From Azolla caroliniana (taxonomy: Eukaryota > Plantae > Polypodiophyta): a DNA stretch of 64,000 nt. Below, piece by piece: positions 1 to 30,669 of this stretch; the first letter of the stretch is position 1, and the number at the start of each line of letters is the position of its first letter. The notes under the pieces were generated by a model. It did not search any database. It saw only the letters and a program-made list of their open reading frames with translations, and was not told the DNA's origin. The position numbers and the translations under genes are program-made. The stretch spans positions 22,072,001 through 22,136,000 of the forward strand of contig JBHGNT010000009.1 in NCBI GenBank assembly GCA_043228905.1. Reading direction: 5' to 3'.

Positions 1-1120
1 TTGCCATGTGTTGGAAGACTGCGGGTGCATTGGTTAGGCCAAACGGCATAACAGTATACTCGAAATGCCCATACCGCGTGCGAAAAGCGGTCTTCCACTC
101 ATCTCCCGGTCGGATCCGCACGAGATTATACGCTCCTCGTAGGTCGATTTTAGTAAAAAACTTGGCACCATTAACTCGCTCTAAAAGACTTGATATAAGA
201 GGAAGTGCATACCTATTCCGGATGGTGACTTTATTCAATCCGCGGTAATCAACGACAAGACGAAGTGAGCCATCTTTCTTCTTGACAAAGAAGATGGGTG
301 CACCGGCCGGAGATTTCGAATGACGGATGAACCCGCTTGCCAAGTTCTCCTCTATGTAGGCTCGAAGGACTTCTAACTCGGTGGGTGACAAGTTGTAAAT
401 TGGTCCCCATGGTGGCTCGGTTCCTGGTTGTAAATCGATGGGACAGTCATAGGGACGGTGATGAGGAAGGGTACCGGCTTTTACCTTGTCAAATACATCG
501 GCATAAGGATGATATTTTGTCGGAAGTTGTATTGAGGAGTCCTTCTTAATAGTGCTAGAAGGATGTACTGATATGGCAAATAGGAACATTGCCTCCTTGG
601 GTCCTTCTTCGCGTAGTTGATGGAGTGAAATGGTCGAAACTCGGTGAGTTGCTTCTTGGGGTGGTCGATATCGGACTTCTCTTGTTCTCCAATCTATGGC
701 TGGATTATGTAATTCAAGCCATGGTAATCCTAGGACAATGGGATGCTCTGGACTACTTATTATATTAAATGATATTATACACACAAAACTACCTAGGACA
801 ACTTGAATGGGTTCTGATTCTTCTACAATATTCCCGGAAGCAATGGGATGACCATCAATGACCACTACAGATGCGGGACAAGGAAGTTTTCTTAAGGATA
901 TCTGAGAAGCTTGGGCAAAATTTCGATCCATGAAACAGGAATTAGCTCCAGAATCTAAAAGTGCTAGGACGGGTACTGGGGGAGTACTTTTAGTACTAAC
1001 AATGACTTGGGCTAGGAACACATTGCTAACTTGCTTGGAAGGAATGGAACCACTAATGGGCTGTACAGATCTAGGGCTGCTGTCCAACCAAATGGCTCCT
1101 ATTTTGGCTGGACTCAATCG
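1..1120 (-). CDS. pol: pol (aspartic protease + RT N-terminus), -1 frame relative to gag, partial
   Basis: Manual translation is open from the slippery site to base 1: ...[13 protein letters not shown] (protease)...PIVLGLPWL...[23 protein letters not shown]...[43 protein letters not shown] (RT). Absent from the ORF track because no stop lies in the window. Confidence 0.92.
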
Positions 1121-2271: not shown

Positions 2272-2342
2272 AGTATAGGGAAAAGGGTAGGAGGATGAGG
2301 GAGAGTGACAAGTAGGCTAGAGGAGGAAAAATTGGTTCAAAC

Positions 2343-2781
2343 TGTCAGGAATAGTACTAAAACAGAGATGGAATTAGTACTAAGAACAGCAGTACTATTA
2401 GTACTAAGAGGACAGGACTGCGTAAGATTCCCGAGAGAGGAAGTGAGAAGAGGAGAGAGAGAGAGATAGCGAGAATGAGAGAGAGAGAGAGATGATGACA
2501 ACAACTATATATTATGTGAAAAGATAAGTACAAGCGGCTAAGAGGCTTAAGACTGGCGTTGAACCAATTTGGTTCAAAACAATGCCTTGTGCCTCCTTTT
2601 ATAATGTTTTTAGGAATAATCCTGAAGCTTCTAGAATGTTCCAGAGAGATCTGGAATATACATCAATTTTCTATGATAAAGTATAAATGAAAATAATATC
2701 CTACAAAATACAATTCATAATCTAATGGTAAGAGCTCGACCCATGTAGCATAAAGTCATGGGTTCGAGTCTTGCCATGACA
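2343..2781 (-). repeat. 5' LTR of Gypsy element 1 (439 bp)
   Basis: TG...CA ends on minus strand, TATAAAA at 2603-2597, and clear similarity to the LTRs at 23985-24375 and 29436-29864. Confidence 0.9.
2718..2777 (+). ncRNA. tRNA-like (A box/B box) module inside the LTR U3 tip, antisense to the element
   Basis: TAATCTAATGGTAAGAG (D-arm/A box), 18 nt, AAGTC (variable loop), ATGGGTTCGAGTC (T-arm/B box). The anticodon arm does not pair, so this is not a functional tRNA. Confidence 0.6.
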
Positions 2782-3269
2782 GGAGACAATGATAGAGGTT
2801 CATGAAAGTACCAATGATTGATTACTAAAAGCAACAATTTTTATGACTCTCAAATGCTGTGTATTAAAGATGTTGGCATGAATTAACCAATGATTGATAA
2901 GTCTGATATTTAAAATGGTGAGCATTAAAGAACCAATGAGTGAGACGTTCTATATCAAAATGGGTGCCATTAATTAGCCAATGATTTTAACATTAATCCA
3001 ACATATTCATGGCTTGTTAATGATTAGATTTATATTATACTTGATTTAACTTCATATAGATGTAGTTTATATAATATTTGATATTTTAAGTACAATTACT
3101 ATATTAAAAATAAATTTTTGATTATTGTATTAATAGAATATTACATGATATAGACATTCTATTGATTTGGCTTTTGTTTAGAGAGAAGTTTATGTTTAGA
3201 GAGGAGCTTATTAGTTTTTTTCCTTACCCTAAGCACATAACTTACAAAGCCCTATCTAGACCTTAAGCC

Positions 3270-6047
3270 ATGAGTGAAGATTCACCGTTCTCGATTGAAG
3301 AATATTGTTTGTCATCAGACTCATCGTTTTCTACTGAAGAGTATTGTTTGTCAACAGAGTCACCATATTCGATTGAAGAATATTGTCTGTCGACCGACTC
3401 ACCATATTCTATCGAAGAATATTGTCTGAGCTCATCTACAGGGAATGTAAATAATGACACATGTGAAGAGTTCTCTATTGAAGAATACGATATTAATAAA
3501 GATACAGAGAATGAAGGTAGTGCCTAGGAAACATTGAATAACATTGGCGATGGTCACAACAGAGAATTAGATTGTAACAAGGTTACACCAACCTCTATGC
3601 AGGAAGAGAAATCTAGGAGCCCTATGCATATTAGAAGAATCCCACGAAGAATTCGTTTGGCTAGATTTAGCTTGGTTACATCAAATAAACAGATTGGATT
3701 TGATGTCAAAAAAATATGTTGTGCCCGTGGTTGTATGTCTATGATTGGAAAATCAAAGTTGCGAGAATTAAGGCGATACTATTTTTCGATGACCGGTGAT
3801 GAGCAAGACACTTACCTCGGGTCACATATGCAACTAGTATCTAACAAATGTACGGGGATCAAAGTATCATTCAAGTATTATATCTTCCATGCACAACAGA
3901 TATGTAGAGTTGCATTCAAAATTGCGTTATGTGTTAGTAACATGCGGCTACATAGAGTACAACAACGTCTACTTAGCGGGGATCAGATGCTCAATTGTAA
4001 AGAGGTTCCAAGTATGAAAGGTGCAATTGGAAGACATGCTATTGGTTGGATGAAAACTTACTTTCAGTTAAATTGTGAAGTAATGCCCACTACAGGTAGG
4101 ATGCATCTTTTTGATAATTATACACGTCGGGAAGTTTATGATGTCTATCGATCTTATATGCTGGGCTCACGTAATAAGTCTATCACCTATAGCCAATTCA
4201 CAAGATTATGGAGAGCTCGGTTTTCAAATGTTATTATTCCTCGTAAAGTATGTATGGGGTATTGCTCCATTTGTGCAAATCTTAAAAGTTTGGCTAAAGG
4301 TGCAAAGACATCAATGGAAAAGGATACGAGTAAGAAGTTACTACAAGAGCATCGTGAGGCACAATCCTTAGAACGAAAGAAGGCGATGCATCATAGAGAG
4401 AAGTGTTTGAAGAGGCCCGAACAATACATGTGCTTAATGATAGATGGCATGGACCAGAAGAAGACATGCTTGCGGCATATGCGGAGGCTCCCCAAAGATG
4501 TCAATGATGAGTGCCTTGTTCAAATGCACTTGGTGGGATGCTTGGCTTATAATAGGTCTGTTCGACCTCACGTCTTCATTACTTACCCCAATGTTCACAA
4601 TGACCCTAACCTAACAGTTACAGTGACTCACCGAGTTTTGATGTCTTGGGGCCAACCTTTCCCCCTGTTCTATACATTCAATTGGACAATACTGCTAGAG
4701 AGAACAAAAATTCAACTGTATTTGGCTATCTAAGTATGTTGGTCAACCTAGAATTGTTTAGGAAAGTGAAAGTCAATTTCCTTTTGGTTGGCCACACACA
4801 TGACCATATAGATCAGATGTTTAGCACATTCTCTAGACAGTTGTCTCGGCATGATGCTTTGACTTTACCTAACTATTTGATGTCATTTGTGATGCTTATA
4901 CACCACGTCCAAAAGTGTTACACTTGAAGGAGGTATATGACTTTAAGAGATATATATTAGATGGGGGTTGTGGGAATGTTAAAGTGCTTGCTCAGTTAAA
5001 CAATATAAGTTTCAATCACATTTTTATGATAAAGAAAAATGGAATAAGTGGTTCTACACTTTTGTATGCTAAACAATATTCATCTTCTACAACATGGGAA
5101 CCTGAAGGTGGTTGCCAGTTATTACTTTGTATGCCGAGTACAATTGTCCATGGAGCTAAGCAAATGCCAATTGAGAAGAAAGGACAGTTGCAGAGCGACT
5201 TGGTATCAGAACAAAAACGGTCATGGCTCCAAGCCTTAGAAGAAAAAAGAAAGCATATTGAGGCCGCCAAGAAATATGCCGCACAACAAGACACTCATGG
5301 TGGGATGTATTTTATAGTGATCAGAAAGAAATTATAGACAATTGTGTATATGTTGATAATTGGAATTTGGAAACGCCATTCACATGGTCGCTACAACATG
5401 ATCGCGTAAATAGAACTCCGGAGCAACTAGTAAATGCGATTAATGACAACTTGGTCCATCCACAACAAAGAGACATTTATGTGGGACCAAGGATGACCAA
5501 AGCAGCCGAAGCTAGATGGCAAGGCAATTTGCAAGAGCTCACCGTGGGGATGTTGATTGCAACGCCGGCTGATGAGAACTCATATGGCCACCAATTTTGG
5601 GTTGGTAAAATTCTAGAAGTGCTAATGCATGAAATAGAAAACACGATCAAGTCTATAAATGTTCATTGGTACAACACTAGAAGTGCAAATGCTTTTACAG
5701 GTAAGTATACATTGGAGATAATTGAATGCCCAACAAGAAGGGGAGGTAGGAAGAGGAAGCGAAACATTCGTAACACCTCGACCCTTGATATCTCTGATGT
5801 GGATATCATCGTGTACAACTTCACACTTACAAAAGTCGGACGATTAAGGAAGTCAACAATAGATATAATAAAAGAAAAATTACCAGGTCTACAAGGTGGC
5901 TCGAGTCAAAGGGAAACGAGATCTGCTACATATAATCTAGAGTCAAACCATTTGGTTTATGACGAAGATAATGCACTGATTGGTACATCCGAGGATGATG
6001 AGGAGGAATCGTCATTGTATATTAGTTATAGTAGTGATTCTCCGTAA
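3270..6047 (+). pseudogene. Sola-like (DUF7869-type) DDD DNA transposase, disrupted by a stop and frameshifts
   Basis: Consecutive ORFs 3270-3527/3534-4733 (same frame), 4646-4927, 4915-5337 and 5367-6047 carry CxxC (CSIC), LMIDGMDQ, YIQLDNTARENKN and FLLVGHTHDHIDQMFS. These are the DN..ENKN / GHT..ID motifs I associate with Sola-type transposases. Confidence 0.65.
3278..3490 (+). repeat. 36-bp coding tandem repeat (SPYSIEEYCLST), ~4 copies plus a partial
   Basis: Repeated TCACCATATTCGATTGAAGAATATTGT units at the transposase N-terminus. Confidence 0.85.
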
Positions 6048-9156: not shown

Positions 9157-12127
9157 TACCAATGTATATTACTGAACAAATGTGCCTTCTCATTTTTCTT
9201 TAGAGATGTCATAAGAAAAATCTAATCTGGGGGAAGTGTGTTCCCATTTAATTAGACTAAGGAAATATGTCTTGAACCAGATCTTCAATAATTTGATTGT
9301 CTTGTTTATTTTGACCATTAGACTAAGGTTCTTTGCAACATAGGCGCAAACCATATCCTCAATAATTTGATTATCTCCTTCAATTTGACCATTAGACTAA
9401 GGATGACTTGAGGTCTCATGCTCAAAGTAGTTTCTAACTCTTTAAAGACATGAGGACAAGAATCTCTAATGAAAAACCACATTCATTGGTAACCATAAAA
9501 TTGTAATAACTCGTCAAGAAATTGGTGACTCAATTCATGAGTTGTTGGTATAAATCTAGTTAATTTTATTAGTTGATCGACAATCACCCATATAGAGTCG
9601 CAACCTCTTTGTGTTTGAGGCGTGCTACAATAACATCAATAGATCTAATTTCCCATTTATTATTAGGAATATCTAGTAGATATAAAAGACTTGTAATCGT
9701 AAGCCATTCAACCTTATTCACATGACATTGTAGACATTTAATTGCATAATTTTGCATGTCATGGGTTTATTTAGGCCCGAATTAGTTTGTAGAGATTTGA
9801 ATCATTTTCGATGGATTCTAGAGTTCCCAATTGAGGATGTATTAATATGATACTAAAAAAATAAATCTCTTTTACTTGAAAGAGATCTAGAACACAAGCC
9901 TTCACATTATAATAGAGAAAATTGTTACAAATGTGAGAGTCAACTTAAAGGGTGTGGTGATTTTAACGACATTTTTATCGGATTCAACTATTACCCACCA
10001 TCTGTTGAAGAAACTGACATCAAGGTATATCTCAGTTTAATCACACAAAAATAAAGCTTTTTGACATAGGAATCTATGCAAATAAGCAATTGATGAAGTT
10101 GATCATCGACGAACTATAAATTTCCATGTGCTAAATGAAGTATATAAGTGTTTTGGCTTTTAACTTATTCCTATTCAAAGTCTCAACATCTCTACCAGGT
10201 GATCATCAATTAAATTGTGTGAGCTACTCTTATCAAACAAGTAATGCACTAAAGATCCATTGATTTGACCAAATACTTGGAGCAAATTATTGTGGGCCTA
10301 GTAAATGTTTGAGAAAAGAACATGGAAAATTACTTAAAAGTTTGGGTTTGAACCTCAATAATATAAGGAACTAGCCATTATGGTTAAAAACTTTGCCTTT
10401 TTGTTGTTGAGGTGTAGTAGAAGTTTTGGTTTTCTATTGGAGTTGGCAACAATTGTCTTTTGTGTGCCCCTTTTCTTACAATTTGCACATGAAGGAGAAT
10501 GCACTAAGTGTTTTGACCAAAATCACCATTGGGTTTCCCTTTGTTTCCCCTTGAATGATCCGGGTTTAGTTCCGTTGACTCGAGTTTATTATGACCCTTC
10601 TTTTAAGTGTGCTATATCGAAGTACAATCTCGCCGATATCTTCAAAGTTTTAGGGGTCTTAGAAGGCATTGATATATCTTTCTTTCTCCAATAATAGTCT
10701 AAATTTAGAATGCTAGTAAGGAACCATTTTTCCCCCTCATGTCTTGATTTTTGAATTTGCATACATGTATGATGAAAGTCGTTATTGAGAGAGTAATTAC
10801 ATGATTTACAAAATAGAGTCCTTTAGTTTTTTGTTCCTTCAGAGTCATCTGGTTTTTTGTTTCTTCAAATTTAGAAGGTGGTTGTAGAACTTGTCGTTTA
10901 AAGATGTCAAAGAAGTTATCTAATGTATCGTGCACTTTCTTTGTAGTTTGAAGATTGCACCACCGAACAATTTCCCCACCTAACTCATAAGCGGAGAGGC
11001 TATTTTCGTATTATGAAACTCACGATTAAGTGTAGCTTGTGCACGTAGAACGAGAACAAGATAAGAAAGAAATGAGTTGGGAGATATCCGTGGTTTGGTT
11101 GTCAAGTTTCCAATCAATAACATCATTGACTTGGTCAATGGAGACCTCATATGCCTCACGATGTTTTGTTTGTTGTCAATGCTTGGGCATTCAAATCCCA
11201 AAAAGGTCTAATGCCAACAATTAGCTCGCTTCCTCACTTTAAACTTTAGATAGCTCTATTATTGATAAAAATAGAAACCTCTCTTCTGAGCATGCACCAC
11301 ACAACAACTCTCTCTTTTTCCTAGAATGCAAGTATTTTTGTCTTTGGATGAGTGCATGGCTTCAACAAAAATGTGAGTCGATCATCCCCTTTAATGGTGT
11401 GTTCCCTCATCTTCACTTATGAATTATATCTCCAATTTCCCCTTCCAATTGTTATTAGTGAGTTTCTAACGAATGCTTGACCCCTCATTTCACAATGATT
11501 ACCTCTTACCATTGGAGCTATCTTTCATTGTTATCTTTATTTTCTTCTTTTTCCATTTTTTTCAATGACCATTTCGACCAAAACCCATGCCTTTAAACAA
11601 ATTGCATTTTCCATGCTTTTCTCCATTCACATACGCTGCAACATGTGCTAGTTTGCCCATAATCACATGGATGCAAAGGTTCCATCTTTATAGATTATTG
11701 TGATTTAAATTATAAAAAAAACTCTACTTTTTCAATGCAATACAACAATTTTACACATAGGGTAGGTCATCAAATGTATATAATGCATGTAATGAAGATA
11801 GTAAACTTTAATAACCTACTCATATCCATATGTATATATGAAAGGTGGAATCTTATAGTTTACATATGCAAAATATATATCATATTCTCGGGTAGAAAAT
11901 GGAAACTTTAAGATCCTTGTTGTGTGTAATAGATTGATTTTGGCGTCCAAGTGAAGAAAATGAAGTATAAGTTCAAGCATAGGAGCCACTGCCAAAGCAA
12001 TATTCTACAAAAACTCATTTTGCTTCATACCAAACAAACATGAATGTCAATATATTTGATTGACACCACCTTATTAATGCAAAAGATGTTGAAAAAAACA
12101 AGGTATCATAACGAACCAAGATATGTT

Positions 12128-18680: not shown

Positions 18681-21600
18681 TTGTCTTTTGACATTTTCTC
18701 AACCTTGGTCAAGATCTTTATATAAAGGTTGATAATTCTTATTTAATTCAAGTGTAAAATTTGGATGGATGAGTTTCTTCTTTCTGGGCACTTCTTGCAA
18801 GTTGCATGATCAGTATCAAGAAAGTTACATGCTATAGCTATCCAAAAGATGGGCCAAAGGTAGTAGTGATAAATGGTGCCAAGTTGCATTTTCAGTATGA
18901 AAAAGTTATGCTAGTTATCCGAAGTTTTGTATGAGAGTTTGGTGGTGGTATCAAAGACCTACATGCATGCATTTAGGTGTAGCGGTCTCAAAAGCATACA
19001 AAAGAAGGTTCAGGGGCTTGCACCACCATGTTTCAAAGAAAAAGAGGTTAGGCGATTGGTCGGCTACTCACCTAGAAAGACTGTAAACGCTAAACCCTAC
19101 AGTCTAGAGTATTTTGCTACTCGAGCATTTAGGAATCCTCAAAATATCGGAAGAGACCAGTCGAGAAGAATCAAGAAAAGCTTTGTTCATTCCTCGCAAT
19201 GAGAGGTGAAGATTGTGCATGATTTGTCTCCTTTTTCCTTTCTATCAATAAGAAGAATTAGTCCGCTTGGATCCTTATAGCATGAGACTAATGGTTTGTG
19301 TTCCTCTTTTATCAAACACGGAGAGGAGAAGAAATGAAAAAAATGCCATCACCTTATTTTATGGCCAAGCTTCTTCTTTCCCCTTGTTTTTATCCCCTTT
19401 TTTCACCGAGTTAATTAAGCACCATCTTTTTTCTTGTAAAGAAAGCACATTGTAGAAAAAAAGTACATGTGCTTCATGGAGCGTACTTGTGCGGTATCAA
19501 TCATGTCAAATTGAATAGATTGGGTTAGATTGTGTCTACTTTAAGCACGTTGGATTGACCATTTGGACCATGTGCTTGTTCCTCGAGCACATGTAACTTG
19601 TTCTCTTGTTGTAGCACATTTTCTTTTAGAAACACATTCCCCCTTTTTTGCAAAAAAAGAATGTCCTTTCTTTTACGACCCTTCAATTTAGCAAATGGCC
19701 ATGTCTTGTAAATTTCCCCATCTACCAAATGTATCATAGTGTTGTATGGCCTAAGACAGGAATAACGTACATCATATCGAGGGGGTTGCTTGAGTCTGTA
19801 CGAGCATCTTCGAAAGTTTGGAGACAGTAGTTTTTCTTTTTGTTTGTGTTCTTGAATGTCTCCCGTAGTTTTATATTTCCCAACAATGGTTTATATTAAA
19901 GCAATTTACATGAAACTTCAGCATAGATTTTTACCCTTTCAATTGCTCTTGTACTGCTACAGACATACATATGTCCCAAAGCATTAGTAATAACAATTAT
20001 ACATGGCCACATGCCTCATGTCAGTGGAGGAAATACCCAGAGCAGTGGTTGATACCTCCAACGCAACTAAAGTAGATGTTCTCTGCAAGTTGCATTCATA
20101 TACCTCACCATGCCCATTGCCAACTCAGCTAATTGGTGCGTCTTCAATTTCCTTCTTTCAAAAAGTTGACGACTCCATGCATTTTGCTAGAGGAGGCCAA
20201 TTCACATCCTCATTTTTATTTTGGCAACAATAGTTCCCTCGAACTCGATCAACATGGCTCAATGTGGGGTAGGGCCTTTATGTAGGAATATACATGGAGA
20301 CCTTATATACTATATATATGAACATTGTAGGGTGTAAGATTGTTTCCAACAAGAAATAACTCACAAGTCCATTTATGCCTATACCAAAGTGACGAAGAAA
20401 GATGTCCTAGACTTTGAGTCTAAATAGAATTGAATGTGGAAAGGTATTTACTCTTTTTAATAGCAACTTGATGTATTGGATACCAAAAATTTATTGCATT
20501 GGATGTGTAGCTAGCAAAATTTCTATGCCAATGTGTGCTTTCCCGCTTATGGGGGAACAATGTTGTGGAGCTCATAATTTCAAGAGTGTGTGGTTGTGTC
20601 AAAAATGGAAGCAAGAATATGTGTAACATCTAGCAAAACACGCAAGGATTTGTAGTGGCTTACTTGATTAGCTACAAACATGGGAGAAGAGCATGAAAAG
20701 TCCAATTGTCCAAAATGATATCCAGAGCACCATTTCATTGGCAAAGAATTTGGTCTTTTTCTCAAACTTGATGAATCTATTCAAAGTACAATATCATTAT
20801 TCAAGACTATATCGAGAAGAACTAGATCACTCATATGAATGTGCACATGGTGGACAACACCGTGGAGCAAAAGTGCCAGTGCATTAGCAAAGAATGTAGC
20901 TCTCTAACCCCACGAGATACTAATGCAAGCAATTCAACTTACCCAACCGATACACAATGCAATTTTATACAAGTTGCAAACCAACTAACACATTTATTCA
21001 ACACCTCGAAACTTGTGATTTGGACATGCCCATATACCATCTCTTGATGAACAAAAACTTGACCACTACTTCGCAACATATAAGAAAGCCTTGAAACCTC
21101 AAGAATCCACAACTATGGCATTCTTATGTAAAAAGCTTGCATCTTGTCCCTCACCAACCCCTTTACTACAAAAATCAAGGACTCAACCAACTTCCTCCAC
21201 CTTTGCTTCATACAATGTGGAGAAGGTCATCCAACACCTTTAACATGGGCCAATGTCTGACCACACACAACAACAAGGTGAATACCTTGTTAGGAATATA
21301 TCCCTCCTATTGGAGTAGTTGACTGGTTGGGCCGAGTGCCGACAATCGAAGACATGGACAATCGATAGTAGGAGAGTCCAAGTCAAAGACATGACCAACT
21401 AGTTTGGCCGACCGAATGGTCGAAGATAAGGCCGACTAGTTGGGCCGATTGGACAGTCGACACTAGAGTCGACTAGTCGATCAGTCAGTTAAATAACTAC
21501 TATTGTTATAATAGAAATGGCAGTAGCAGTGGCTACATTTGTAAATAGCCCATATAGTGTATAAGTATAAATACACTTACGGCAAACATTGTGACCAGGT

Positions 21601-22611
21601 GAGAGAGAGAGAGTAGAATAGAATAGTTGTTAGCCTTTGTTGCACTACATGACAGAGAAGAGGGTGTGTGAGCGTGAGAGAGCGGCAACAAAGTTCAGTG
21701 AACTTGCTAAGAACCCTAAGCGGGTTATCGTCTATGTGTATCAGAGAAGATTGTAACTGTTTTATGTACTCTCTTGTGTATAGTGGAATCTCTGCTCCCC
21801 TGGTTTTCCTCGTTTAGGGTTTCTATGTAAAATTGTGTATTCTGTGTATTTGGTGTCAATTACACAGTCGGTCTTTCTCAGAATCGGAAGGGAGCAAATC
21901 CGTACAAACTGGTATCAGAGCGTCAAGGTTGAAGATGGAAGGAGGTGTGAGCGGCTTCTTAGGCATCATAGTTCTAAACTCTCAGAACTATGCGGACTGG
22001 AAGATAAAGATGGAGGACCTTCTCACAGTAAAAGACTTGTACGTGCTAATCGACAGAGAAGAAATGAGTCGGAATGGAAACTTCTAAATAGAAAGGCAGT
22101 GGCCACCATCCGACAATGCGTCGATGTAAATGTCCTCCAACATGTGGCGAACGACACAAATGCATATGAGATGTGTCGAATGACACATCTTAATCTTTCT
22201 CTTCCTTCTTGGTTGAACTCCCAAGCTTCTCTCCCTCCTCTTACTCCCTAGTCCAAGACACCCGTGGTCCCGTCCTATCTGACACGCACACACGGATTTC
22301 CACGACACTGGCAAAGGAGTCCACCAAGGAGAGAAAAGTCACATGCTAGATCCAAGTCTAGAGGTAAGCTAACATGCTTTTATTGTGGAAAGCCTTGACA
22401 CATTCAGAAGGACTGCCAACACCTCAAGAAGGACAAGAGTGTTGGAAATAATGTCCAACCCATGAAGATTCTTGATGAAAAGGGCACATTGGCCGTAGCT
22501 ACGAGTGCAGAGGAGATTCTGTTCATTTGTGAGTAGGAAAGCACAAATCTTGCAAGCGAAGAGTGCACCTGGGTAATCAAGTTGAGTGCATCATTCCACA
22601 TAACTCCGTCG

Positions 22612-22997
22612 AGAGAGTGTTTTTCGACTTACATAGCCGAGGATCATGGCTATGTAAAGATGGGAGATCATGGAGAGTGCAAGATAGCAACTGTGCAAGT
22701 CGGAGGTGAATGTGGCAGCCGATTTGAGTGGAGAGTTATTGTCATGATATGGCATGGTATGGCTCCAAAAGGATTCGAACCCATGACCTTGTGTGACATG
22801 GGTTGAATTTATTATTTCACCATAGGAAATTCATGTATATTCCAGATTACTTTGGAACATTCTAGAAACTTTAGGAGTACTCCTAAAAGTATTATAAATA
22901 GAGGCACATGACATTATTAAGAACCAATTCGGTTCAACGCCCGTCTTAAGCCTCCTAGTTGTTCTTATATCTTTCTTCATATAATATAATATACTTC
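22612..22997. repeat. 386-bp direct repeat, copy A (Copia protease/PPT + 5' part of Gypsy LTR)
   Basis: No differences seen by eye from 23857-24242 (offset 1245). Confidence 0.9.
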
Positions 22998-23856
22998 TGT
23001 TGGGAGACAGGTCCCTTCGGATGGGAAGGGAGAAGAACAGTGCTGATGAACGAGCTCAGCCGAGGCCGAAACCGGAAGAGGAGTACCCGGCTACGGAGAG
23101 CCGGATGGTGCAGGCCCGGTATGAACCGGATGAGGAGTATCCGGCTACGGAGAGCCGGATGGTGCAGGCCCGGTATGAACCGGATGAGGAGTACCCAGCT
23201 ACGGAGAGCCGGATGGTGCAGACCCGGTGAGAACCGGATGAGGAGTACCCGACTACGGAGAGGCGGATGGTGCAGGCCCGGTGAGAACCGGATGAGGAGT
23301 ACCCGGCTACGGAGAGCCGGATGGTGCAGGCCCGGTGAGAACCGGATGAGGAGCACCCGGCTACAGAGAGCCGGATGACGTAGACCCGGTGAGAACCGGA
23401 GGAAGAGACATATTCGTAAATATGTTTATGAGAGCCCATCGAGGCTATATTTGTAAATAGCCGAAAAGTCATATTAGTATAAATATGACTTAGGGCAAAC
23501 TTTTAGATGTAGTTATCATTCTTGTTTGAAAAAGCATAGCGAGAGCGCGTAACTGTGTACAGAGAGAGAGAGAGAAAGAGGTCGTTGCCTCTGTTGTAAC
23601 CGCCGCCTGTGGCGAAGATCTGTGAGCACGAGGTCGTTGCCTCAGTGAACTCACTGTTGTACATTCTTACATAGTGACAGTTTGCAGCCTGTGGGCTGCT
23701 GTGGTTTTTCCCCTAGTTTGGGGTTTTCCACGTAAACCTCCTGTGTACCTTTTCTCTCCTTTGCGTCGCGTGTTCTTTCGTTTCCTGTTTTCTGTGTATG
23801 AAAAGAATCTCGGTTGTGGCCGAGCATTGTGCATAAGGAGCGTTCAGTTCCCGTCA
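22998..23856 (+). mobile_element. Solo LTR (Copia-family-like, 859 bp) containing a 54-bp minisatellite
   Basis: Inverted ends TGTTGGGA...TCCCGTCA; TATAAAT; GTGGTTTTTCCC...GGGTTTTCCACGTAAA motif shared with the LTRs at 21288 and 39723. Confidence 0.8.
23070..23400. repeat. 54-bp GC-rich tandem repeat, 6 copies plus a partial
   Basis: AACCGGATGAGGAGTACCCGGCTACGGAGAGCCGGATGGTGCAGGCCCGGT(ATG/GAG) units start at 23070, 23124, 23178, 23232, 23286 and 23340. Confidence 0.95.
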
Positions 23857-24242
23857 AGAGAGTGTTTTTCGACTTACATAGCCGAGGATCATGGCTATGT
23901 AAAGATGGGAGATCATGGAGAGTGCAAGATAGCAACTGTGCAAGTCGGAGGTGAATGTGGCAGCCGATTTGAGTGGAGAGTTATTGTCATGATATGGCAT
24001 GGTATGGCTCCAAAAGGATTCGAACCCATGACCTTGTGTGACATGGGTTGAATTTATTATTTCACCATAGGAAATTCATGTATATTCCAGATTACTTTGG
24101 AACATTCTAGAAACTTTAGGAGTACTCCTAAAAGTATTATAAATAGAGGCACATGACATTATTAAGAACCAATTCGGTTCAACGCCCGTCTTAAGCCTCC
24201 TAGTTGTTCTTATATCTTTCTTCATATAATATAATATACTTC
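23857..24242. repeat. 386-bp direct repeat, copy B
   Basis: Matches 22612-22997. Confidence 0.9.
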
Positions 24243-26194
24243 TTGTTGTCATCATTCTCACTCTTCCTTCCCCTCTCATGATTCTCAGACACCCTTTCCC
24301 TTCTTAGTACTATTCCTCATTCTTCTCCTCTATCTTTAGTACTAATTCTCCTTGCCTCTAGTACTATCCCTAACAGTTTGAACCGAATTTCCTATCTTCT
24401 TATCCCTCCTTCCCTTCATACTAATTCTCTTATCGTTCCTTCCTCCAATACTAAATGGCAATTGTTAGCGCTCAGGCATACCAATCCGTTTTCTCGGAGC
24501 TCCAATGCTTAAAAGAAAAGTTTATAGCACTAGAACAAGAAAATCATCGTTTGTTGGGGAATCTTCAACAAATAGCTCTTGAAAAACAACAACATGGGGA
24601 GTTGATGTTACATGTGCAACAACTTGAAGCAACTATTGTGTCATTGCAACAACATGGACCAAGCACTCAAAGGACGCCCAAGGAACCCAAGATTGGTCTT
24701 CCTGTGAAGTTTGATGGAACGCGATCATAGTTTAGAGGATTTCTTAATCAGGTACTTGTGGTGATTCAAATGCATCATTCTCGATATCCTACCGATGCAT
24801 CACGAGTGGGACTAGTAGGCACGCTACTTAGTGGCACAACTTTGGCATGGTTTGCCCCTTTGTTAGAAAAGGACTCTCCTTTGTTAAATAATTTTGGAGT
24901 TTATTAGCGAGTTTAAAACATGTTTTGGAGATACCGATAGCGTTAGGATGGCAATCAACAAAATCCAAAGACTGCGCCAAGGTGATCGGCCGGCCTCAGC
25001 TTATGTCATGGATTTCCGTCTTCTCGCCACCAATATTCCTTGGGATGACCAAGCATTGATGGAGCAATTTCGTTATGGCCTACGTAATGATGTCAAGGAT
25101 TTACTCTTGACCTTCCCCGAAGAACCAAAGTCGCTCACAGAAGCAATATGTCGAGCGATACGATGTGTTAACCACCTTTTCGAATGACGTTCGGAACGTC
25201 AGTTCCAGATGCCAAGGGCAAGATTAGAGGCCACCTACAAATCGACACCACACCTCGTCGCGACCATTATCGAAAGAGGAAAAGCAACGATGTCAAGCAA
25301 ATAGACTATGTCTTTATTGTGGTGGAACGGGGCATATTGCAGTTAATTGTCCTCATAGGCCAAGAAGACAGGTAAATCAAATAGCTGCTAGTAGTAAGTA
25401 CTAATAGTACTAAACTAGAGTCTATTTCATTAGGAGTGTCAGATAGTCCTAATAACCGAAGCCTATCAAATAAATTTGTAGTCCTTAGTCAATTAGAAGA
25501 AGAGTTAAACAACTAAGTCCAACCAAAATAGGAGCTGTTTGGTTGGACATGTATTAGCACTCCTAGATTCTAGAGCCAATTCTTGCTTTATGGATAAGAA
25601 TTTTGCCCAAGCTCATCAGATATCCCTAAGAAAACTCCCTTGCCCAGATTCTGTAGTAGTCATTGATGGTCACCCCATTGCTTCCGAAAATATCATAGAA
25701 GAGTCAGAGCCAATTAATGTTATCCTAAATATTTGGCATGTTTAGTATCATTTAATATAATTAGTAGTCCAAAGCATCCAATTGTTTTGGGGTTACCATG
25801 GTTCGAATTACACAATTCGGACGTAGATTGGAGAACAAAAGAAATTGGGTATCGACAACCTCGAGGATCTACTCATAAGATTTCAATGATTTCGCTACAA
25901 CAATTGTGTGACAAGGACGCAAGGAAGAAACGCTTGTATTCGCAGTATCAGTGAAGCCTTCCAACACCGCTAAGTAGGAGTCAACAATTCAACTTTCAAA
26001 GAAGTATCATCAGTACGCCGATGTTTTTGATAAGGTAAAAGCTAGTACTCTTCCCCATCATCGACTGTATGATTGTTCCATTGACATAAAACCCAGAAAA
26101 GAGCCACCGTGGGGACCAATCTACAACTTGTCACTAACCGAGCTTGAAGTTCTTTGAGCCTACATAGAGGAAAATTTGGCAAATGGGTTCATTC

Positions 26195-26647
26195 TCTCAC
26201 GAACACACCAACCGCGGACTCGGACGGAGCACGAATGATGGGGCTAAGAGCGTGGAACTTAAGAAGCTGGGAATGACATAAGAGCATGAAGACAAAGATA
26301 AAGACCAAGGAGACAAGATGGGGCGAAACGAGAATACTAGATTGATGTGCCAATGTTCGGCGTTGAATCCCTTGAAGGGGACCACGGAGGTTACAAGTAT
26401 TTATAATGTGAGTTGAAGTACATGCATTAGAATATTCTTAAGAATATTTTGGAAAATATTCTAGAACCCTCTAGAACCTTCTAATTCTAGAACTTTCTAA
26501 AAACTCTTAGAACGTGAATAGATAATCTATGAAGATATGCATAACATGATTATGTACTTGGATGTGTTGGCTACAATATAACACTTGACTATGATACAAG
26601 AGGTCAAGAGTTCAAATCTTGACATAACTGTCGCCATGTCTGTGACA
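26195..26647 (-). mobile_element. Solo LTR of a related Gypsy family inserted in pol
   Basis: TSD CATTC at 26190-26194 and 26648-26652 splits the pol motif GFIRH; ends TGTCAC...GTGAGA (mutated CA); TATAAATA followed by TTCAACGCC as in the other Gypsy LTRs. Confidence 0.88.
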
Positions 26648-29466
26648 CATTCGGCATTTGAGATCTCCAGCCGGCACACCTATTTTCTTTGTCAAGAAAA
26701 AAGATGGATCACTTCATCTAGTTGTGGATTACCATGGCTTGAATAAGGTCACCATTAGGAATAGATATGCACTTCCCTTGATCTCGAGTCTTTTAGAAAG
26801 AATTAATGGCGCAAAGTTTTTTACAAGAATCGACTTACGAGGAGCATATAACCTCGTACGGATTCAACCGGGAGACGAAATTTGGAAGACAGCGTTCCGC
26901 ACTCGATATGGGCACTTCGAGTATACGGTTATGCCATTCGGCCTCACCAATGCGCCAATAGTTTTCCGGCACATGGCAAATGATATATTCCAAGATCTTT
27001 TGAACATTTGTTTGATCATCTACTTGGATGATTTGCTAGTTTATTCAAAGACACAAGAGGAGCATGATTCTCATGTATTATTAGTACTAAGACAACTATG
27101 AGAACATGGTCTTTATGCAAAGCTGGAAAAGTGTAGTTTTGATTGTAACCAGCTGGAATTTCTAGGCTATGTCATCTCATCGGAAGGCATCTCTATGGAT
27201 CCAACTAAAGTCCAGAGAGTGGCAGACTCCACGTTCATTGCGAGATGTGCAATGCTTTTTAGGATTCACAAACTTCTATTGCAAGTTTATCCAAAACTAC
27301 TCAAAACTTAATTTGCCATTCACACAGCTTACAAAGAAGGGGAAATCCTTTGTTTGGACTAAGGAAGTAGACACGTCTTTTGAAGGTCTCAAGAAAGCAT
27401 TTACATCAGCTCCTGTTTTAGCTCATGTTGATCCACAAAAACCATTTATCATTGAAGTTGGCGCATTTGATTTCGTCCTCGGTAGTATTTTGTCACAACA
27501 AGGTAATGATGAGAAGCTACATCCCTTGGTTTTCCACTTGCGCAAATTTGACGCTGCCGAAATCAACTATGAGATACATATCAAGGATATCTTAGCAATA
27601 GTGGACTCTTTTGCACAATGGAGGCATTTTTTAGAAGGATATCCTCATCAAGTCACTGTATTCAGTGACCACAAGAATCTTGCCTACTTCCAGAATGCTC
27701 GTGTATTAAATAGATGACAAGCTCAGTGGGCCCAATTCCTCACTGGTTTTGACTTCAAGATTACATATCGCCCGGGCACGCAACAGGGGAAGGCGGATGC
27801 ATTATTAGGAGACTCGTATCTAGCTCCTCGTCCTGGTGATCCGGCCTTCGACAATCAAAAGCAAGTAATCATGGGTCCAACACGACTTCAAGCAACGTGG
27901 GTCTTTGACACTCCATTGGATTCCTACATTATCGATACCATGCATGAAGATTTGAAGACAAATGTTTTCGCTCAAGCTATCCTAGATCAAATCAATCCTT
28001 CTCGAGCATCTTGTTCACGATCACAACAACCAGGTATAGATTATCAACAATTCAAATGTCATAATGGATTACTTTTCTTTAAGAAACTTTTGTATGTTCC
28101 CAATGGTTCGTGCCGCCTTCAAATATTACAAAATTGTCATGACACATACACAACCAAACATTTTGGTAGTACTAAAATGTTGGATTTAGTACAACGATCA
28201 TTTTGGCGGCCTCATATGAGAAGATTTTTTGAAGACTATGTTCAGACATGTGATACATGTTGTAGAGCGAAGATGTTGCGACATCATCCATATGTTTTGT
28301 TGGAGCCATTACCGATCCCAACCAAACCATGCAATCTATTTCTCTCGATTTTATCAGAGATCTTCCGGACTCAAGGGGCTTCAATGCAATCTTAACATTG
28401 GTAGATCGATATACTAAGATGGCACATTTCCTGCCCTGTACTAAAGAAATCACTAGTGAAGAAACTGTTGGAATTGTTATGTGTGAAATATTTCGGCATC
28501 ATGGTCTTCCCGACAATATCATAAGTGATCGTGGACTGCAATTCGTCTCTAAATTTTGGAAGCATTCCTTTAAAATGCTCAAGGTCACCTGCAATCTCTC
28601 CTCCGGCTATCATCCCCAAACAAATGGACAAGCAGAACATACCAATCAAATGTTGGAACAGTATCTTTGGTGTTTCCTAACCTATCAACAAGATGATTGG
28701 GCAGATATTCTACACTTTGCTGAATTTTCTTATAATAATTATATCCACTCCTCTACTAGGGTTACACCATTCTATGCTTATATCGGCTATCATCCTTGTT
28801 GGTGTGTGATAGAAACTCCTGAGTTACCTACAAATCCTAGTGCAAAGGATCATTTGGAGCGGTTACGACAAATTCAAGCAGAAATATCTACCCACCTACA
28901 TCGCGCCCAACAAACACAGAAGGACTATGCAGATCATCATCGGCTTCCATCCCCTTTTAATATTGGAGATTGAGTATGGCTATTACGACGGCACATCAAG
29001 ACTACTCGACTGTGTGACAAACTGGATTATCGACATCTAGGCCCTTTCCATATTAACGGAAAAATTAATGATGTTACTTTTTGCCTTGATCTTCCTCCGC
29101 AACTACCCGGATACATCCGGTATTTCATAGTTCTCTCCTAGAACCCTATTAGGACATCACTATCTTGTATTACACCACCTCCACCCTCGATCGAACTTGA
29201 AGATGGACCTAAGTACGAGGTTGTTGCCATCCTCGACTCCAAGATTGTTCGCAACAAGCTCTATTATTTGGTCTATTGGCTAGGATATGGTCCAAGCGAA
29301 CGTACTTGGGAACCAATGACGAATTTGGCGAATGCTTGAGCTCTTCTTGAAGACTTCCATCGTCAATATCCGGACAAACCAGGTCCTCAATCAATGACGA
29401 CTCGTAACACTCATCGTTTAAAGGGGGGGGGTAAGTGTCATGATATAGCATGGTATGGCATTAAAA

Positions 29467-29520
29467 GGATTTGAACCCATGACCTAGTGTCACATGGGTT
29501 AAAGCCTTGCCATTAAGCTA
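29467..29520 (-). ncRNA. tRNA-like A/B-box module in the 3' LTR U3 tip
   Basis: Minus strand TAGCTTAATGGCAAGGC, 18 nt, AGGTC, ATGGGTTCAAATCC, TTTT. Canonical tRNA spacing. Confidence 0.65.
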
Positions 29521-30669
29521 TATATTGTAATACAAAAAATATTATTTTCATTTATTATTTCACCATAGGAAATTCATGTATATTCGAGATTACTCTAGAC
29601 CATTCTAGAAACTTTAGGAGTACTCCTAAGAGTACTATAAATAGAGGCACATGGCATTATTCAGAACCAATTTGGTTTAACGCTAGTCTTAAGCCTCCTA
29701 GTTGTTCTTATATCTTTCTTCATATAATATATCACCTGTCATCATCATTCTCTCTCTCTCTCTCTCTCGTGAGTCTCACACTCCCTTCCTCTTAGTACTA
29801 ATCCTCATTATACTTTCCTTCTCTAGTACCAATTCTCTCTTTGTTTTTAGTACTATTCCTGACAGCTGAGTGCCGACAGTCGAAGACATGGAGAGTCGAT
29901 TGGGGGAGTCGACAGTAGGAGGGTCCAAGTTGAAGACACGACCAACTAGTCAGGCCAACTGGACAGTCGACACTAGAGTCAACTAGTCGATCAATCAACT
30001 GAATAACTACTATTGTTATAATAGGAATGATAGTAGCAGTGGCGACATTTGTAAATAACCCATATAGTGTATAAGTATAAATACAGTTAGGGAAAACATT
30101 GTCAGCAGGTGAGAGAGAGAGAGTAGAACATAATAGTTGTTAGCCTCTGTTGCACTCCATGACAGAGAAGAGTGTGTGTGTGAGCGTGAGAGAGCGGTAG
30201 CAAAGTTCAGTGAACTTGCTAAGATTCCTAAGTGGGTTATCCTCTATGTGTATCAGAGAAGATTACATAATTGTTTTCTGTACTCACTTGTGTATAGTGG
30301 AATCTTTGCTCTCGTGGTTTTCCCCGTTTAGGGTTTCCACGTAAAACTGTGTATTCTGTGTATTTGGTATGTTTTCCATTTTTCCGCGATATTGTCAATC
30401 ACACAATCATTCTTTTTTAGAATCGGAAGGGAGCGAATCCCTACATACCTTATATATGTAGTATATGCACGATTGCTCTTATTCTTATCTTTGCACACAT
30501 GTTCAATAGGACCTCAATAGAGGTCCTTCCCAACTCATGAACCATCAATTGTGCCTATTCATAAGTCAAGGTGCCCCTCTAATCAAGGAACTATCAGACT
30601 ATTATTATTGATCATGCACTCACCAAACTTTGTGGAGTGGTGCTTCGTGTGGAATTAAAGACTTATGCC

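Follow-up and report, generated by a model that had tools for sequence, protein, structure and literature searches.

Among the closest described systems is Helenus (TRIMp3), known from one plant family (Selaginella), whose LTRs hold tRNA-derived A and B boxes; as far as the available text goes, the boxes are conserved, the tRNA is non-functional and it is not the primer (Kojima 2024, PMC10886601). The same text describes Helenus elements as non-coding TRIMs of 311-1263 bp with a tRNA-type PBS, the tRNA part lying in sense orientation in the 3' half of the LTR. It also notes tRNA-like parts in 'not a few' Repbase LTRs and analyses TRIMs alone, so unanalysed cases exist, and it expects autonomous partners to use Pol II (PMC10886601). 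Cassandra TRIMs likewise have a Pol III internal promoter in plant LTRs, with boxes and spacing kept and the intervening sequence variable, but in the accessible portions of two accounts this type 1 promoter derives from 5S, stands in place of the Pol II promoter and drives transcription of a non-autonomous element (10.1101/2023.07.14.548913; PMC10886601). The U3 of foamy viruses, autonomous LTR elements with their own Pol II promoter, carries A/B-box units with hairpins; the available text reports terminators, defined pre-miRNA folds and shown products, and a Pol III region that is deletable in culture (PMC3993851). Tcn1 elements, marked by self-priming and an aromatic cage according to the accessible text of Neumann 2019 (PMC6317226), combine these features with a non-seed plant host, an LTR of ~440 bp and fungal and vertebrate relatives, and the available parts of PMC6317226 and Novikova 2010 (PMC2864245) say nothing of a Pol III promoter or tRNA-like part in their LTRs.

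The window, meaning the whole stretch of 64,000 nt that was analysed, comes from Azolla caroliniana (GCA_043228905.1, JBHGNT010000009.1, positions 22,072,001-22,136,000 of the forward strand). Its chromoviruses match Tcn1 in self-priming, aromatic cage and LTR length, probably also in host and relatives, and differ in carrying tRNA-type A and B boxes at the U3 tip. The conserved boxes, the non-functional tRNA and the lack of a primer role recall Helenus; the elements themselves have gag and pol (with full-length pol in the family), self-prime and possess a TATA box, and the module is antisense at the U3 tip and points out of the LTR, so that neither a short, non-coding, non-autonomous element nor a promoter transcribing the element describes them. 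Compared with the foamy-virus units, tRNA geometry is explicit here, and fold and terminator are not conserved. No description of tRNA-type boxes in LTRs of Tcn1 or other autonomous chromoviruses was found in a search outside which most subscription papers lay, and the accessible text of PMC3601003, PMC2864245 and PMC13570524 does not mention such an LTR module. The features of the window are as follows.

2..1120, minus strand: PR-RT frame of element 1, open to the window edge; 93% to the full-length chromodomain pol P0002
1114..2316, minus strand: gag ORF of element 1 (Retrotrans_gag, Ty3_capsid, zinc knuckle)
2330..2342, minus strand: PBS, complementary to the self-primer and not to a tRNA end
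2343..2781, minus strand: 5' LTR of element 1 (LTR1), Tcn1-like chromovirus, 439 bp, TGTCA...TGACA ends
2558..2569, minus strand: self-primer, 34 nt below TATA; pairs with the PBS
2597..2603, minus strand: predicted TATA box of the element 1 Pol II promoter
2624..2641, no strand assigned: nGAAn array of four perfect units, between module and TATA
2718..2728, plus strand: A box (T8-G19), antisense to element 1; position 2720 is G, nearer consensus, in most family copies
2725..2777, plus strand: hairpin of 21 bp spanning the LTR1 module (z -5.0)
2753..2757, plus strand: variable-loop-like pentamer; G at 2754 (AGGTC) in 97% of aligned depth in run X1
2762..2770, plus strand: B box of LTR1, 11 nt from the LTR tip
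22740..23002, plus strand: partial duplicate of the element-2 5' LTR within a 398-nt, 99.5% duplication; a non-independent copy
23985..24375, plus strand: element-2 5' LTR; B box retained (HMM match 24005-24036, minus strand), A box taken by a 47-nt deletion
26195..26647, minus strand: solo LTR of a second lineage, closest to L068, within element-2 pol; TSD CATTC
26568..26618, plus strand: degenerate module of the solo LTR, with AGGTC and B box; A box not significant
29436..29864, plus strand: element-2 3' LTR, preceded by a PPT and a chromodomain with aromatic cage
29463..29520, minus strand: complete module of the element-2 3' LTR, with A box, paired D stem, AGGTC, B box and T4

The pol order PR-RT-RH-IN with a C-terminal, aromatic-cage chromodomain is that of Tcn1 chromoviruses (Ty3/gypsy); the relatives include named proteins of fungi and amphibians, and the comparison set contained no named Tcn1 reference, hence 'Tcn1-like'. 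The LTR family is abundant (2569-4278 contigs aligned per run in four runs labelled with three organisms). Element 2, on the plus strand, is decayed, and its LTR flanks form no TSD, which suggests that it is a recombinant.

The preliminary description had placed a tRNA-shaped module in three diverged LTRs, and all three strings it cited lie where it put them. An A/B-box score was set a priori from the textbook consensus (maximum 27). By this score LTR1 reached 23 and the element-2 3' LTR 27, against 16 at most in 60 dinucleotide shuffles of each. The available text of Kojima 2024 gives the tRNA box consensus as TRGCY, YGG and GGTTC (PMC10886601). The distance from T8 to G53 is 44 nt in both LTRs; 84 of 107 measurable real tRNAs have 44-46. 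The third LTR, the solo copy, retained only the B-box half, since its A box is at background (p = 0.94) and its total score of 10 compares with a shuffle mean of 10.4. Conservation over three diverged LTRs thus shrinks to two LTRs with the module, LTR1 and element 2 form one family group so that the three represent two lineages, and the A box is missing from the element-2 5' LTR and its duplicate.

At sequence level the module has the A and B boxes at tRNA spacing that define a type 2 Pol III promoter. That it is tRNA-derived, antisense and at the U3 tip was borne out by the scores, by the spacing and by Rfam RF00005, which aligned the element-2 copy over model positions 6-65, D arm through T arm. 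The proposed loss of the anticodon arm also stands, as the alignment skips the arm and all modules lack it. The covariance check gave 18.1 bits (E 0.13 over all families), below the gathering threshold of 29, and ARAGORN found no cloverleaf; a functional tRNA gene was therefore rejected. Neither ARAGORN nor whole-window Rfam found a tRNA gene in the window, ARAGORN found none in 113 retrotransposon loci, and Rfam gave no tRNA match at E ≤ 10 in 10 whole loci. The strict A+B rule alone is non-specific, because six other window sites outside LTR tips also satisfy it; a site at 9277 that passes proved on inspection to hold no module.

Inward from the LTR tip the order is B box, A box, AT-rich stretch, nGAAn array, TATA and self-primer. 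The PBS pairs with a stretch that lies 31-34 nt below TATA, which indicates self-priming, and a tRNA PBS is absent. The primer/PBS pair co-varies in six of the 13 sequences tested (LTR1, element 2, L010, L018, L081 and L020), and no such pair was found at the LTR end in the other seven. Because primer and PBS change together, the module is, as the preliminary description held, not a primer relic; a PPT is present, and the module lies at the wrong end and on the wrong strand. The genomic RNA starts at the self-primer below TATA. A role as genomic-RNA promoter was rejected, the module being antisense and facing outward with TATA and self-primer separate.

Relatives were fetched with an alignment of the integrase end and chromodomain, a selection by protein that is blind to the LTR. 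It yielded 113 loci: six viral, 80 metagenome (the best 80 of 576) and 27 genome-bin. Of these, 100 were scanned, leaving out L005 (partial match) and 12 with <150 nt behind the chromodomain. The strict antisense test (A ≥ 9 and B ≥ 10) was passed by 6/11 loci of ENA series ERZ10343xx-44xx and by 0/89 other chromovirus 3' regions, some of which lack a visible PPT; the Fisher p of 4e-7 overstates independence, as there are near-copies among the 89. The motif is thus not restricted to the copies first noticed. L055 and L081 are 98% alike, so the six strict carriers represent five families. The remaining five of the series comprise the degenerate carriers L011, L018 and L068, L071 with no LTR, and L020 without the module. 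A pol-wide scan gave two further elements, with the module in neither.

Scanning viral contigs with a DNA pattern yielded 120 loci, with no retrotransposon among them, that served as a source of real tRNAs. When 643 kb were searched with a profile built from 135 unrelated phage tRNAs, modules took the top eight places (11.2-19.3 bits), one being L005, and the highest scores in three shuffles were 8.0, 10.7 and 6.4 bits. L008, L010, L011 and the solo LTR fell within the shuffled range, and L007, L018 and L068 were not among the matches listed. With regard to a possible tRNA-derived SINE insertion, which would have a tail, a TSD and free copies, a module profile gave no copy outside LTRs within these 643 kb.

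Across nine non-redundant LTRs the boxes exceeded spacer and flanks in conservation, as had been suggested of them relative to flanking U3. Identity was 0.76 in the B box (shuffled 0.38) and 0.81 in the variable loop (0.34), both inflated as they are the alignment anchor, 0.57 in the D arm (0.46), 0.46 in the spacer (0.44), 0.59 upstream (0.55) and 0.46 downstream (0.41). Scoring the A box where tRNA spacing from the B box would put it, a test that is not circular, gave combined p values of 3e-6 and 2e-7 in two 9-row sets. T8 to G53 measured 44-45 nt in 10 of 12 modules; the A box is weak in four of the 12 (solo LTR, L068, L011 and L018). Within the family (729 + 698 contigs of two organisms, aligned at 80% likeness; rows 2700-2748 only, the B box lying outside), variants occur at A-box positions 9, 10, 11 and 12, with minor ones at 8 and 14. 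No listed variant falls on 2725-2744, G18G19 included, and 10 of 18 upstream positions vary. Most family copies are nearer consensus than the window copy (G at 2720 and 2754). As judged from these comparisons, the module is real, selected-looking and wider than the copies first described, and the structural claim made for it was over-read.

Since coding elements with a Pol II promoter carry the boxes backwards, selection must act on something other than transcription of the element. A protein-binding DNA site is indicated, because letters and spacing of TFIIIC type appear selected without a shared product. We tentatively favour, at somewhat short of even confidence, the reading that the boxes are kept by selection as a putative TFIIIC site that would protect the Pol II promoter of the element from closure by heterochromatin next to it. 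TFIIIC would bind the antisense boxes at the outer U3 tip, and TFIIIB would load on the upstream side of the A box, facing the TATA box ~115 nt away, which would result in a divergent Pol III/Pol II arrangement. Lying between flank and promoter, the module could then act as a barrier or open-chromatin site, and a Pol III transcript, if made, would be incidental and variable in length. tRNA genes and B boxes form barriers in yeasts, and SINE B2 elements form boundaries. These precedents likewise place A/B boxes, as DNA, at the edge of a chromatin region, and differ in being host elements with shown activity where the present site is putative and transposon-borne. We know of no TFIIIC barrier established in plants.

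Several results weigh on this TFIIIC-site reading, among them the weak A box of four of the 12 modules. L020, an amplified family (contig coverage 53) whose sisters are carriers and whose self-primer is that of L081, has no module; as the L021-L042 group and the 89 other regions also do without it, the module is dispensable, which counts against shielding. In addition, the hairpin arms in the window's family are as invariant as the boxes, which a pure protein-binding model leaves unexplained.

That hairpin points to a rather unlikely alternative, in which a short hairpin RNA, transcribed by Pol III in antisense, serves as silencing decoy, small-RNA source or brake on the element, like the foamy-virus U3 units. 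Of the hairpins claimed for each of the three LTRs, those of LTR1 (21 bp, z -5.0) and element 2 (z -3.2, a whole-unit hairpin closed by T4) held up and that of the solo LTR did not (z -0.5); L081 also scored strongly (z -3.9). Within the family the arms are invariant and the loop variable, and self-pairing shows weak trends (permutation p 0.008-0.14 over several tests), the full set of 15 tests being borderline (p 0.008-0.40). Conserved pairing as an acceptor stem (p 0.12-0.40) or between D-loop and post-B region (p 0.07-0.18) was rejected. Across families the fold dissolves. The core hairpin has a z weaker than -2 in 9/12 modules, covariation is absent, and 59% of positions pair against 56% in shuffles (80/500 shuffles as high). 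RNAalifold predicts no pair shared across the modules, so the idea that structure persists while sequence changes did not survive family-wide. Where paired positions differ between LTR1 and element 2, the changes are C>T and G>A, as methyl-cytosine decay produces, and hence weak evidence of compensation. No T4 terminator is conserved across modules, the first T4 lying anywhere from +1 to +972, which in these sequences weighs against one defined small RNA; a conserved hairpin followed by a T-run, as in a foamy-type pri-miRNA, occurs in element 2 only. A DNA site fits better than an RNA product because fold and terminator both lack conservation. Two contigs of low depth, from a presumed RNA run, touch the module and carry no weight either way.

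It is quite unlikely that the modules are passive relics, tRNA or SINE heads captured once or repeatedly at the U3 start, functionless, with spacers that differ by donor. The phylogeny is compatible with capture, as the carriers form two supported groups with non-carriers between (pol ends 52-97% identical to the query) and a single carrier clade was rejected (two changes; 31-row quick tree; AU p = 0.008). Three rows entered as negative in that tree (L012, L016, L091) are so only provisionally, and the split is forced by L020 and the L021-L042 group. A single gain followed by losses, two separate gains, or exchange of LTRs could each give this distribution. Relatives thrive without the module, the A box has gone from some copies, and remnants of a T stem and an acceptor-like stem persist in L008, L010 and L058. 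Against decay without function, families only ~50% alike over their first 300 nt share its strand, place (B box about 12-50 nt from the tip) and spacing; the anticodon arm has gone from all modules while the boxes remain; and within-family variation respects A-box degeneracy.

A mobile landing pad, where recruited TFIIIB would guide own or foreign integrases to sites just upstream, in the manner of yeast Ty3 at tRNA genes, is very unlikely: the window is a nest of insertions, but none lies upstream of a module and the solo LTR sits in pol (few loci), and an insertion upstream of the A box would hit U3 and harm the carrier. A sense-strand role in replication, with a palindrome aiding plus-strand priming or integrase end processing and an inherited tRNA look, is highly improbable, for although the position beside PPT and att end is fixed and the LTR1 sense strand folds too (z -2.4), the distance from the tip ranges from 12 to 50 nt and the TFIIIC-type letters are conserved where the fold is not.

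In published accounts, Pol III promoters in LTRs drive the transcription of tiny elements that code for nothing; here they stand backwards in coding ones. If TFIIIC binds, a high-copy family would bring its own chromatin boundary, with bearing on the expressibility of chromoviruses after landing in heterochromatin and on TFIIIC barriers in plants. A broader and doubtful extension is that autonomous chromoviruses may repeatedly capture tRNA promoters into U3 as portable TFIIIC-dependent insulators: in two Tcn1-like lineages (antisense), twice in L005 (sense), and perhaps in vertebrate elements, as judged from read-through peptide tails. If true, it would give heterochromatin-targeting retrotransposons a general means of protecting themselves, one that scatters many Pol III factor sites through plant genomes.

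L005, a chromovirus we take to be Tekay/Del-like and from a seed plant (clade by resemblance), has two sense-direction tRNA-like A/B modules in the U3 of its LTR (4835-4890 and 5002-5058, plus strand), the second scoring 17.5 bits on the phage-tRNA profile. The C-termini of P0066, P0069, P0094 and P0111 are PPT read-through peptides that, at protein level, would fit the start of an LTR and, behind it, an antisense B box; P0111 clusters with elements of amphibians and fish, and the match of P0085 to the read-through B-box peptide is probably chance. Run X21 has, at window 2730-2779, a single 116-nt contig with two head-to-tail modules (depth 2.8). L087-L113 are 27 eukaryotic retrotransposon contigs inside prokaryote genome records, most likely through binning contamination.

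Within the window, two LTRs of another element (21419-21909 and 29929-30448, 84% alike) surround the element-2 nest. Within 22606-24248, the 398-nt duplication consists of Copia-like flank and partial LTR, with ~850 nt of other LTR-like sequence containing 54-nt tandem repeats between its copies; it is a rearrangement or an assembly artefact. A host tetraspanin has its best named matches in fern, lycophyte, moss and liverwort (64-67%), with seed plants at 58-64%, which makes a non-seed plant the likely host.

Perfect three-unit nGAAn arrays, which match the heat-shock-element consensus, occur in U3 at window positions 2624-2641, 22855, 24100 and 26485, and also in L011 and L058. All five three-unit arrays in the 64-kb window lie within these LTRs, and such arrays were found in 5/13 carrier LTRs versus 2/90 other regions; the carrier elements may be heat-inducible.
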